The notes under the pieces are model-generated. The model did no database searches. It saw only the letters and a program-made list of their open reading frames with translations, and was not told the origin of the DNA. Shown piece by piece: positions 56,000 through 61,540 of a stretch of DNA of 64,000 nucleotides; within the stretch, counting starts at the first letter, position 1, and each line of letters opens with the position of its first letter. Position numbers and translations under genes: made by a program. Location of the stretch: assembly GCA_964016885.1 (NCBI GenBank), contig OZ024765.1, positions 8,184,001-8,248,000 of the forward strand, in the 5' to 3' direction. The stretch is from Eledone cirrhosa (lineage: Eukaryota).

Positions 56000-56202
56000 T
56001 TATGCCTCCTTACATACAGGTTTTCCCACCAGCATGCCCCCATCAATCTGCACATAGTTGTTCAGTATTACAGCACAGATACATCCTGAGAAAGGTCCCG
56101 CCCAGTACACCAGTATGTGTTCCCAGAGTTCTGTCCCTTGACAGCCGATCATGTGACCCGTTGCCATGGCAGGGTTGAAGTACATTCCTGTTAAGCTGAC
56201 CC
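56000..56202 (-). CDS. AQP12-like: Superaquaporin (AQP11/AQP12-like), last coding exon ([21 protein letters not shown]...VYWAGP)
   Basis: ttgcag acceptor, phase 1 compatible; NPA-x8-C superaquaporin signature and YWxGP; TAA at 56002-56000. Confidence 0.92.
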
Positions 56203-56535
56203 CTGCAATTGACAAAAATACAATTAATTAATTTAATTAATTAATTTGTTCCCTCACCATGTCCTTTTCTCTCTTTCTCTCTCTTTCTTTCTCTCTCTCT
56301 CACTCACTCTCTGTCCCTCTGTCTGTCTCTTTTTCATTCTCTTTCTCACTCTTTCTTTTTTTCTCCCTCTCTTTCTCTCTCTCTCTCCCTCTATCTCTCT
56401 CTCTCTCTCTCTCCATATATATATCCTACTTTCTCTCTCCCTATTGTCTCTCTTTCTTTCTCACTCTATTTACTTCTAACCATGATAAATAGTTCATATA
56501 ACAAGAAGGAAAGAAAGGGAGAAAGAAAGAGAGAG

Positions 56536-56574
<39 letters not shown>

Positions 56575-56873
56575 AAAAAGAAACGTCTCTGAAAGCAACA
56601 ACTACAACAAAATAATAAAACAACAACAATAACAACAACACTAACAAAATCTAAAGGAGAGAAAAGGAGAGGGAGTGAGAAAGAGAAAATATAAAGAAAG
56701 AAGAAAGGGTGAGGGAGAATATATGGAAAGGGTACAATGTCAGAGTAGAAAAAAAGAGGGAAAGAAAGAGAGAAAGACAGAGGGAAAGAGAGGGAGAGAA
56801 AGAGAAAAAGAGAAAAAATATAGAAAGGGTAACAATAACAGAGTTGAAAATCCCCAGAGGTGCCCTCACTTAC

Positions 56874-57519
56874 CTCCGACAATCATTACTCCTCCGTTAA
56901 TGGCTTTAATTAACTCATCAATATACGGCATAGACGACAGGGACTGTTTGCCCAGGTATGTATCAATGAAGGCGGCTCCCATCTCAACGAGGAAGCCGAG
57001 AGAGATAGTCGTGACGAGATCCGTGTCGCAGGAAACCTCGTAATATCTCAAATGATGATCTTCAATCATATCCAGAGACCAAACGATTTTAGCAAGTCGA
57101 TACGCAGCCAGACCTCCCAAACACTGCACCACAATTTTGAGTAAAGCTTTGTCAAATCCTATCTCCCGTTTGGAGAACTCGTCCAGGGCTTTAATAGGGT
57201 TTTCTGAAGCTCCTTCCAATGTCCGGTTTGAAATAAGAATCTCGATAACAATAACCACGAAGAATATTCCATAACCGTAATGTTTTAACACGAAATTATT
57301 CTCAAAGAAATACGAACAGACTTCCATAGTAGCCACAAACTCAATTAAATAGACTTGGATACAAGCTGGCATGATGGCTTTGGTCAGTTTTCTGAGGATC
57401 AAACCGAGGCTGATGACAATCAACAGGTAGATGATAGTGGCGATGTAGGGCTCCAGATACTCCTCCTCGGGGATACTCACCCCTGCCACCATCTCGTATA
57501 CCTGACGGTAATTCATTGG
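56874..57519 (-). CDS. AQP12-like: Superaquaporin (AQP11/AQP12-like), main exon
   Basis: Multi-pass hydrophobic protein with EFVATMEVC, a deviant first box SENPI and VQCLGG. Minus-strand acceptor ttttcag|CCA ATG at 57519 (ATG at 57516); donor GGAG|gtaagt at 56874. Confidence 0.92.
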
Positions 57520-57740
57520 CTGAAAAGGAAAGTAAAGTCACGAATAAATTACAGAAGTATATATATTGTATAGGTGTATATATATGTGTATATATATATG
57601 CGTGTGTCTGTGTGTGTGTGTATGTGTATATATATATGTGTGTATAGGTGTATATATATGTATACATATGTATATGAGTATACATATGTGTATATATATA
57701 TATATGTATATATGTGTATCTATGTGTGTATATGTGTGTG

Positions 57741-57802
<62 letters not shown>

Positions 57803-57860
57803 TGTATATATGTGTGTGTATGTATGTGTGTATATACATATGTGTATAGGTGTATATATA

Positions 57861-57901
<41 letters not shown>

Positions 57902-58069
57902 GTATATATGTGTATATATATGTGTATATATATATATATGTGACCCGTCCCACCCTTGCAAGCAGGGAAAAGCGGACGTAAAATGATGATGATGATGATG
58001 ATGTGTACATATATATATGTGTGTATATATATATATATATGTATGTACATCTGTATGTGTATATATATG

Positions 58070-58115
<46 letters not shown>

Positions 58116-59005
58116 TAAATATATATGTACACATATATATATATATATATAAATATGCATGCATAGATATGTATGTGTATATAATATATATATATATATT
58201 ATGTGTATGTTAAGCTTTTACCGTTACAATACCACAAATCCTCATATATAAATATATATACACTAATAATAATAAAAAGGATGAAGTGTTAAGCCTTCAT
58301 TACATTCATTAAGGTGTGACATGTGTTTCACTGTTGATGAGCTCAAGGTTTGATCAGTATTGGTGTGGCCTAACTGTGGAATCACAAGCTCATCAGACTT
58401 CTGCTGTGGAAATGGCAGAATGAATCTCTCAGGGCTTTGAAACAGTATATAATTGTTTCTACTTTAGGCACAAGGCCAGCAATAACCCAGTACATTACTG
58501 GTACTTTATTTTATCGACCCTGTAAGGATGAAAGGTAAAGTTAACCTCGATGGGATTTGAACTCAGACAGTATATAATGATTCACATTCATTTATGGTGG
58601 TCAGTTTTGGTTTGTTTTGATTTGGGGTTTTGCTAAAAGGAATGTTTGGGTGGGTATGTGTGATAGGTGAGGGGGGGGGGGTTATAATGAAGAGATGGTC
58701 AACCTAGAATAACTGGACGATACAATATATATGTATATGTACATGTGTAAATATATATATATATGTGTGTATATATATATATATATGTATATCTATGACA
58801 ACTTACTGCAGGCTACTGATGAAACTTATTTTAGTATATATATTTCAAGGGTACCAAGACAACATTGGTACGCTTTCATCAGATAAAATACAAAGTTTGT
58901 TTTATAAATAGAGACATACCCATGAAAATCATACCTATCCAGTGAATATCCAACCGATAAGGTATGATTTTCATGGGTATGTCTCTATTTATAAAACAAA
59001 CTTTG

Positions 59006-59069
59006 TATTTTATCTGATGAAAGCGTACCAATGTTGTCTTGGTACTCTTGAAATATATATAATAAAATA
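59006..59069 (+). ncRNA. Minimal type I hammerhead ribozyme motif; mirror copy on - at about 58827-58890 within a palindrome (58827-59069), Penelope-like
   Basis: tattttat-CTGATGA-aagcgtacca-loop-tggtactctt-GAAA-tatata-TA-ataaaata; 8-bp stem I, 9/10-bp stem II. Confidence 0.78.
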
Positions 59070-59203
59070 AATATGGTTTTATAAATATAGTTTCCATTTA
59101 TTTAACATCATTGAATATTTACTCCACTAATTTGTTGAGTGCTCTAAATCAGTTATAAACATTTATATTTGTCGGACTTCCAACAAATTAAATACCCCTT
59201 CTA

Positions 59204-59241
<38 letters not shown>

Positions 59242-59504
59242 GGATTTTTGCCATCGAGACTGTAAAAGCTTAACTGCAGGGATTAAAACCCATAAATTCC
59301 TCCAATATTCAAAATCATATTTGCTAAGAAAACAAAGAAAAGTTACAATATACAAAGACGCATGCAACAACATCTTGCAGAATAGCAAAACAAACCCCAG
59401 TTAAACAACACAACACAACAAACCACAGTAAAACAAAGAGTAACAACACACACAACAAAATCTAAACAGAAACACAACAGATCATTATACAACACATCCA
59501 AAAG

Positions 59505-59535
<31 letters not shown>

Positions 59536-59909
59536 ACTACATTTTCCCCCAAAAAAAACACCAAAAACAAAACAACAACAAGTGAACCAAAAGCAACCCT
59601 TTTTCACACTGAAAGACCACAAAGAGTGCATTGAAAGAGTGAGTATGAGTAAAATAGTGAGAGTGGGAGAGTAAGAGATAGTGAGTGAGGGAGAGAAAGA
59701 GAGCGGCCGTTCTGTTTATCATACCTGTAATTCAAAGGCCTTTTAATTACAGGTACAATAAACAGAAAAGCCTGTTTGTGAAAGTAATATGCAAGCAAGT
59801 GTCTGCGCATTCTACAGATACATGTAACGTTAACATTGTTCTCAGGGAGATTCAGCATAACAAAATGTGTGAAAAGGCTGACCCTTTAAATTTACAGGTA
59901 CGATCAACA

Positions 59910-60228
59910 GAACAACCTGCTTGTAGAGTGCTCAGGCACCTGCGTATTGTTAATATATAGGAACAACCTGCTTGTAGAGTGCTCAGGCACCTGCGTATTG
60001 TTAATATATAGGAACAACCTGCTTGTAGAGTGCTCAGGCACCTGCGTATTGTTAATATATAGGGACAACCTGCTTGTAGAGTGCTCAGGCACCTGCGTAT
60101 TGTTAATATATAGGAACAACCTGCTTGTAGAGTGCTCAGGCACCTGCATATTGTTAATATATAGGAACAACCTGCTTGTAGAGTGCTCAGGCACCTGCGT
60201 ATTGTTAATATATAGGAACAACCTGCTT
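59910..60228. repeat. 51-bp minisatellite, about 6 copies
   Basis: Unit ggaacaacctgcttgtagagtgctcaggcacctgcgtattgttaatatata. Confidence 0.93.
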
Positions 60229-60503
60229 ATAAAATTAACAATATTCAGTGCCTGAGCATTCCAGAGATACATCTATACGCTCAACATAATCCTCAGGGAG
60301 ATTCAGCACAGCAGAAACAATAGAGTGGGTGTATTAGTGGTAAGAATGATAGAGGAATTGAGAGATAAAGTAGGGTGTAACTGGACTGTGCATGGTAGTA
60401 TTAAATAGTTGAAGAATGTTAGAAATATGAGAGACAGGCAGACGTTTTAACACAACAAAACAACAACAAAGAACAGTAATGGGAGATGAAGATAATGAGG
60501 AGC

Positions 60504-60549
<46 letters not shown>

Positions 60550-60564
60550 GTATATATATGTATA

Positions 60565-60632
<68 letters not shown>

Positions 60633-60667
60633 TATATATATATACACACGCACACACACACACACAC

Positions 60668-60708
<41 letters not shown>

Positions 60709-60722
60709 CGTATATATTTATA

Positions 60723-60785
<63 letters not shown>

Positions 60786-60874
60786 GCATATAAATACACA
60801 CACACACACATATATATACAATTGATAATAATAATAGTGATGGTAATGACAACGACAATAATAATAATATTAAC

Positions 60875-61540
60875 CTCCAATCCAATCATGTTCAGGGGAG
60901 AGAACTCTTTCGTGTCTGTTACTGTTGCAGTTTCGGCGACATTGGTGATGGTCTCCGAGATGATATCGGCTGCTGTTGAATTAGCAATAACACCTTCAAT
61001 AACTCCATCAGCGATTGTTTCACTGGCTGCCTCTAACACTGAATCTGTGGCTGCCTCTAATACAGACTCCGTGGCTGCCTCCAACACAGACCCAGTGGCT
61101 GCCTCCAACACAGACCCAGTGGCTGCCTCCAAGACAGTATCTGTGGCTGCCTCCAACACAGAGTCCGTGGCTGCCTCCAGCACAGAGTCCGTGGCTGCTT
61201 CCAACACAGTATCTGTGGCTGCCTCCAGCACAGAGTCCGTGGCTGCCTCTAACACAGTATCTGTGGCTGACTCCAATATTGAGCTTGTAGCTGTCTCCAA
61301 TACAGACTGTGCCGCAGCTTCCACTACAGACTCGGCTGCGGCTTCCACTACAGACTCGGTAGCAGCTTCCATGACAGACTCGGCTGCGGCTTCCACTACA
61401 GACTCAGTGGCAGATTCCAATATGGAACTGGCAGCCGCTTCTACAACAGATTCGGCCGCAGCCTCCACTACAGAATCAGCCGCGGACTCCACTACAGAAT
61501 CAGCAGCAGACTTCACAATAGACTCAGCTGCTTCTTCCAT
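60875..61540 (-). CDS. Acidic octapeptide-repeat exon (222 codons), probable first coding exon of the superaquaporin
   Basis: ATG in ACG-ATG-G context with an in-frame TAA just upstream; 22 x 8-aa repeats with synonymous variation and no indels; phase-0 donor GAG|gttaat at 60875 is compatible with the aquaporin acceptor at 57519. Confidence 0.75.

Follow-up and report, generated by a model that had tools for sequence, protein, structure and literature searches.

A long acidic repeat tail encoded ahead of an AQP11-type channel in Eledone cirrhosa and its cephalopod relatives

The window analyzed here is a whole stretch of 64,000 nucleotides (nt) of the Eledone cirrhosa genome (assembly GCA_964016885.1, contig OZ024765.1, positions 8,184,001 to 8,248,000 of the forward strand). 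Its minus strand carries a superaquaporin gene with three coding exons, GT-AG splice sites and compatible phases (Table 1). The first exon encodes an acidic tail with an octapeptide repeat, and the other two encode the channel core. An in-frame TAA lies 12 nt ahead of the ATG at 61540, and exon 1 ends at a phase-0 donor (GAG/GTTAAT). Exon 2 begins at the acceptor TTTTCAG/CCAATG and ends at the phase-1 donor GTAAGT. The exons joined give a protein of 504 amino acids (aa) with zero internal stops. An earlier note on this DNA, made from its letters, had proposed these exon coordinates, phases and protein length, and all of them hold. We found that the fusion of the acidic exon to the aquaporin is genuine, which confirms the main observation of that note.

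Four sequencing runs were compared with window positions 60830-62080. Run X5 contains a contig of 1118 nt (depth 485) with 0 differences to 60875-61100, which departs from the reference precisely at the predicted donor 60875. The 30 letters printed from its loose end are identical to window 57490-57519, the start of exon 2; the other 892 nt of the contig, of which just these 30 letters were seen, correspond in length to exon 2 together with 246 nt of exon 3, and the 3' untranslated region likely extends to 55957 at least. The exact 60875/57519 junction, at which spliced reads had been predicted, is thus present in X5, and this contig and the fused orthologues described below bear out the fusion. 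The junction comes from a loose end in a single run, whose kind and library are not recorded and which shares its study with run X4; no RNA run was listed for the locus. The DNA-like run X4, which may be the source of the window sequence, shows no loose end at 60875 among the rows listed (29 further rows). Other X5 contigs span the exon 1 repeats up to 61403. No X5 contig was placed on 61404-61918, which includes the ATG and where X4 has one; a filter removes records. Record 29 of X5 (61328-61403) is 76 nt long and not 78, so the graph probably branches into sequence beyond 61405; this length and the repeated words suggest that X5 probably holds sequence past 61405. Runs X1 and X2, from another organism, matched only at simple-repeat intron edges and are uninformative. 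In a genome search, two of nine candidates matched: the locus itself and one paralogue of 22% identity. With just these two matches, no retrocopy in the assembly accounts for the joined form, and a retrocopy origin of the contig was rejected.

Table 1. Features of the superaquaporin gene in the window
Feature	Position in window	Strand	Remarks
Coding exon 1	61540-60875	minus	666 nt, 222 aa, acidic tail
Octapeptide repeat	61010-61537	minus	22 units of 8 aa
Linker	60875-60907	minus	conserved; L-N-[ML]-x-G-x-E ending at splice donor
Intron 1	57520-60874	minus	3355 bp, phase 0, GT-AG; spliced out in X5 contig
Exon 2	57519-56874	minus	H0, H1-H5, first box NPI, loop-C Cys
Helix H0 region	57379-57450	minus	H0 = 57450-57394, then basic RKLTK; acidic residues precede H0
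First NPA box, as NPI	57193-57201	minus	
Intron 2	56203-56873	minus	phase 1
Exon 3, coding part	56000-56202	minus	second box NPA followed by Met, Cys nine residues after NPA, H6, C-terminus

On the sequences compared, the acidic tail is common to octopods and further cephalopod-clade relatives and is not a property of this genome alone. Of 2834 candidates in a search for longer proteins, four matched (O. bimaculoides, 421 aa; O. vulgaris, 501 aa; Argonauta, 549 aa; and another of 550 aa), and cluster look-ups added proteins of relatives with 426 and 447 aa, encoded on contigs of 1.6-2.5 kb. Exon 2 of XP_052833172.1 (Octopus bimaculoides), CAI9742238.1 (O. vulgaris) and GAB1610520.1/GAB1605650.1 (Argonauta hians) is 83-87% identical to that of the window. 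These orthologues share the tail, the linker and the junction with the window protein but differ in tail length and repeat unit. Tails of the long orthologues measure 147-283 aa with a net charge of -19 to -52 (8/8 rows measured); they are acidic, rich in Ala, Ser, Thr and Val, and end in the linker motif at the same junction. A four-residue period of acidic residues is the top or second peak in each of seven tails. Non-octopod tails contain 5-11 Lys or Arg. A conserved basic, Cys-containing segment opens the long tails of the non-octopod rows P0023, P0029 and P0038 (residues 1-35); octopod tails are without it. In a tree of 23 cores, eight cephalopod-clade rows split from the 15 others with support 100/100. 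The window gene groups with Octopus and Argonauta within the clade, and four other rows fall outside this octopod group; we infer that they are squid- or cuttlefish-like. The architecture, which the earlier note took as lineage-specific, is thus broader than this genome: Octopus, Argonauta and non-octopod relatives have it as well, and long-tailed superaquaporins may also occur in Nautilus or in other animal groups. The long proteins are already in RefSeq/GenBank by automatic annotation as 'aquaporin-11(-like)', names that omit the tail.

The 222-aa tail has 47 Asp or Glu and 2 Lys or Arg (net -45), with an acidic residue at each fourth position and a hydrophobic pair at each eighth. Adjacent repeat units differ 39, 8 and 67 times at codon positions 1, 2 and 3, and single changes between them are synonymous in 48 cases and non-synonymous in 23. 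This codon pattern and the synonymous excess indicate that the repeat is coding-constrained. Over exon 1 the antisense strand likewise has an open frame; the minus strand is favoured by the codon-position bias and the orthologues. Maximum hydropathy in the first 60 residues is 1.17, with no evident signal peptide. A model of the tail alone has a predicted local distance difference test (pLDDT) score of 39 and no confident fold; it is helical, not beta. The T4 gp5 octapeptide beta-helix and a coiled coil were considered, and the tail scored 24.4 bits with PF22178 (cut-off 30.9). A Pfam scan of the tail gave no family above cut-off, an Atlas search with it gave no usable match, and a metagenome scan gave no match; an Atlas search with a full orthologue returned ordinary aquaporin clusters only. 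The tail had 197 matches in the genome. Among the 150 listed, all but the locus are 16-54% identical, and we take them as compositional. An N-glycosylation sequon occurs in one of eight tails checked, that of the window (Asn187); the named octopod orthologues are without it.

Judged by sequence, the core is a superaquaporin in every feature tested except its di-lysine end, as had been proposed; AQP11 is the best PDB match, and the NPI and NPA boxes and the AQP11 fold of an O. vulgaris model agree with it. Human AQP11 (PDB 9vxw) is the sole PDB sequence match for exon 2 (E 1.8e-4), and a mollusc orthologue as query matches it with E 3.9e-13. Orthologue P0021 scores above the PF00230 cut-off (37.1 bits), and the window exons taken singly fall below it. 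The AlphaFold model is that of the O. vulgaris orthologue, not of the window protein, and has pLDDT mostly 70-90 in the core and below 50 in residues 1-229. Its residues 247-501 align to residues 9-262 of 9vxw (Z 25.5, root-mean-square deviation 3.0, 248 residues aligned). The top canonical aquaporins start aligning at about residue 275, the best of them only from residue 276 (Z 18.1). By both the PDB search and the structural alignment, AQP11 is thus the aquaporin class nearest to the core. The first NP box is deviant (NPI) and the second intact (NPA). The Arg of the aromatic/arginine filter is replaced by Met after NPA in window exon 3, as in 6/6 homologues checked. A Cys155-Cys227 disulfide is described for human AQP11 (PMC12857728), and both cysteines are kept, one nine residues after the second NPA (AQP11 Cys227) and its partner in loop C (Cys155).

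A C-terminal di-lysine motif is common in the AQP11 family and not shown to be necessary. We found a KKxx or KxKxx end in 11/11 non-cephalopod rows and in 0/25 full-length cephalopod-clade rows; the latter come from six clusters, with eight exon-2-only rows excluded. The non-cephalopod P0047 likewise ends in di-lysine. The window protein has a Lys at -3 only, and its C-terminus is eight residues longer than in the Octopus orthologues (56000-56026, minus strand). Loss of the motif hints at release from retrieval to the endoplasmic reticulum (ER).

Exon 1 is probably one of several alternative first exons. Three relatives have letter-identical 273-aa cores bearing five, four and three distinct N-termini, which argues for alternative first exons in these relatives. 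All of these N-termini switch at the acceptor equivalent to 57519, where several short first exons join. Other forms are set apart by two residues at the junction. One short alternative exon of the relatives ends in L-[KR]-M-A-G-Y-E and resembles the linker of the long exon, so the short and long first exons may have a common ancestor. In P0003, P0005, P0024 and P0039 an alternative N-terminus of 48-51 aa ends in a motif like the long-form linker. When the relatives' short first exons were sought in the window and 100 kb upstream by tblastn and a motif scan, the tblastn matches among those listed were all of low complexity, a search that would miss short divergent exons. The ATG at 57516 in exon 2 opens a frame of 281 aa and, from the sequence, could be the start of a short form, as the earlier note had suggested; no short octopod form turned up in protein searches. 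The 385 nt ahead of the ATG of exon 1 (window 61541-61925, minus strand) contain three short upstream open reading frames (8, 10 and 15 aa), and an acceptor-like site lies upstream of this ATG near 61920 (minus strand).

In its cryo-electron microscopy structure human AQP11 is trimeric and has seven helices, of which the extra one, H0, places the N-terminus in the ER lumen (PMC12857728). The O. vulgaris model aligns across AQP11 H0. With H0 present, the tail lies N-terminal to an additional transmembrane helix, and its predicted side is luminal or extracellular, unlike the cytosolic N-terminus of canonical aquaporins. Window H0 (57450-57394) has a mean Kyte-Doolittle hydropathy of 2.42, and H0 is the most hydrophobic 19-mer of exon 2 both here and in the orthologues of the three named octopods. 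Its flanks are acidic on the N side and basic on the C side (difference +8). H0 is more favourable for insertion in the cephalopod clade: its summed free energy is -0.9 to +1.3 in 8/8 cephalopod-clade rows versus +1.8 to +4.8 in 15/15 others, and the charge of the C-flank is +3 in all of the former versus 0 to +2 in all of the latter. According to passages of PMC6269167, an N-domain that is folded or basic prevents insertion in the N-out orientation, and a hydrophobic helix with positive charge after it promotes such insertion. On the sequence and the model, we lean towards a luminal or extracellular tail.

From these observations we propose an AQP11-type channel with an optional, unfolded acidic tail, which H0 would thread into the lumen to form a cation-binding, osmotically active polyanion; taken whole, we see this proposal as about evenly balanced between right and wrong. 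H0 would act as a reverse (N-out) signal anchor and pull the ~245 preceding residues across the membrane without a signal peptide. A type I signal anchor has reportedly translocated an unfolded domain of ~200 residues in vitro. If the protein forms a trimer like human AQP11, the luminal mouth would bear a charge of about -135. The tail might be a low-affinity binder of Ca2+ or other cations and hold water or spacing. Without di-lysine retrieval, the long form may reach a secretory vesicle or the cell surface. Permeability to water, glycerol and H2O2 has been shown for human AQP11 (PMC12857728, PMC6812059), and the core here may pass the same solutes. The function of the tail is, in our analysis, the weakest step of the proposed mechanism.

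Several points weigh against a translocated tail. Translocated domains hardly ever reach ~40 residues in human tail-anchored proteins and signal-less G-protein-coupled receptors (PMC6269167, legend of Fig. S5), and a domain of 245 residues would be exceptional. The basic start of the non-octopod tails and their 5-11 Lys or Arg would hinder head-first translocation, and a sequon is present in one tail of eight. An N-terminal Halo tag on human AQP11 is cytosolic (PMC6812059, section 2.2), and H0-less AQP11 is still trimeric, with low expression, as the structure report describes (PMC12857728). The Kyte-Doolittle ranges of H0 overlap slightly (1.94-2.42 in the cephalopod clade versus 1.29-2.09). 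Moreover, H0 strength, flank charge and di-lysine loss changed on one branch and count as one evolutionary event. Finally, human AQP11 minus its di-lysine motif does not reach the plasma membrane, a result that PMC6812059 gives as data not shown and that weakens the step beyond the ER.

The 504-aa isoform may instead be made with its tail in the cytosol and with H0 not spanning the membrane. The choice of first exon would then decide whether the channel has seven helices or six, and its tail would be a cytosolic acidic spacer, a trafficking determinant or a binder of basic proteins. About a third of our belief lies with a cytosolic tail, and the explanation built on it is possible, though less probable than the luminal one. 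The Halo-tagged AQP11 with its cytosolic N-terminus is functional in H2O2 rescue (PMC6812059); like the persistence of the trimer after H0 deletion, the mostly short (<40 aa) natural N-out domains and the basic N-terminal segment of non-octopod tails, this speaks for it. However, Halo is a folded domain and the tail has no confident fold, and H0 is the most hydrophobic 19-mer with strong N-acidic and C-basic flanks. It is improbable that the tail has little specific function, being a repeat of variable length that is tolerated on a tissue-specific first exon, whose promoter and short conserved linker are what matters; such a tail might be trimmed, or bypassed via the ATG at 57516. The spread of tail lengths, the repeat unit varying among lineages, the mere 10 invariant columns in a 9-row alignment and the three upstream reading frames are consistent with this. 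Yet octopods and non-octopod relatives alike retain the frame, acidity, scarcity of Lys and Arg and four-residue period, and second codon positions are strongly spared (8/114 differences). That the repeat frame is a separate gene or a non-coding repeat never joined to the aquaporin is very improbable and already largely refuted by the exact junction in X5 and by fused orthologues in three named species and on relatives' contigs of 1.6-2.5 kb, even though the donor GTTAAT falls short of the strongest consensus, the record does not mark X5 as RNA, and the ATG-bearing part has no X5 contig.

Returning to the tail threaded into the lumen, a broader scenario, doubtful in its full form, is that coleoids repurposed an ER superaquaporin. 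The retrieval signal would have been lost, and H0 would have become a signal anchor threading up to ~300 unfolded acidic residues. The result would be a promoter-chosen polyanionic brush, luminal or extracellular, that links the binding of Ca2+ or other cations with water flux in a compartment peculiar to cephalopods, such as a secretory granule, pigment organelle or reflective lamella. A link to water flux in iridocytes is speculation; the word aquaporin was absent from the seven reflectin papers that we found.

We also looked at the surroundings of the gene and at its paralogue. A second, divergent superaquaporin-like gene lies on the same contig (G000:C26:20615147-20618940; L020 1429-2145, L023 3649-3939). 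Its exon 2 is 21-22% identical and the position of its second intron matches; it has a degenerate first box, NPT as second box and a long basic C-terminus, and no acidic tail was found within ~20 kb upstream. On the plus strand of the window, ~10390-10520 and ~43440-43590 each hold a trypsin-like exon; the two resemble each other, score below the Pfam cut-off and likely belong to neighbouring serine-protease genes. A ribosomal protein S4 exon (L013 221-529, minus strand; PF01479 above cut-off) lies ~44 kb upstream of the start codon. Near-perfect minisatellites occur at window 59910-60228 (51 bp unit, in intron 1), 6401-7329 (99 bp) and 36539-36969 (51 bp).

The topology of AQP11 is disputed, as a tagged construct has a cytosolic N-terminus and the 2026 structure a luminal one. 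The gene described here is a natural experiment on this point: one core carries N-termini of 2 to ~280 residues, with a built-in glycosylation reporter (Asn187) in the window protein. If the luminal placement is true, a channel has a very long translocated N-terminus free of a signal peptide; if the cytosolic one is true, a promoter controls a switch of topology. In either case the gene, which changed on the cephalopod branch, offers a candidate channel for water movement at the level of organelles. No title or abstract start that we found describes an acidic-tailed superaquaporin, a search whose scope lay outside subscription papers on mollusc aquaporins. The architecture is likewise not mentioned in main-text passages of an animal aquaporin survey (10.1101/2022.07.25.501387) and of the quagga genome paper (PMC6796509), nor in parts of the Octopus maya transcriptome paper (PMC8976471), where a Drip-type aquaporin is found.

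Compared with human AQP11, the window protein has ~245 instead of ~13 residues before H0 and NPI instead of NPC as its first box. The filter positions also differ (F/I/I/M/M in the window protein versus T/V/V/A/L in human AQP11, transferred by alignment via P0008), so the window pore is possibly narrower. Gastropod and bivalve aquaporin-11/12-like proteins (Aplysia, Biomphalaria, Bulinus, Elysia, Ruditapes, Solemya) are 42-50% identical in exon 2, share the motifs and have the H0 region; in contrast to the long form, they are 279-314 aa long, with no acidic tail, a weaker H0 and a di-lysine C-terminus. The calreticulin C-domain, calsequestrin and chromogranins are acidic luminal Ca2+-binding domains with high negative charge, low folding and cleavable signal peptides. 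The tail has no evident signal peptide, and no sequence relationship to such domains was found (Pfam, Atlas); it is like them in charge and low folding, a functional analogy at most.

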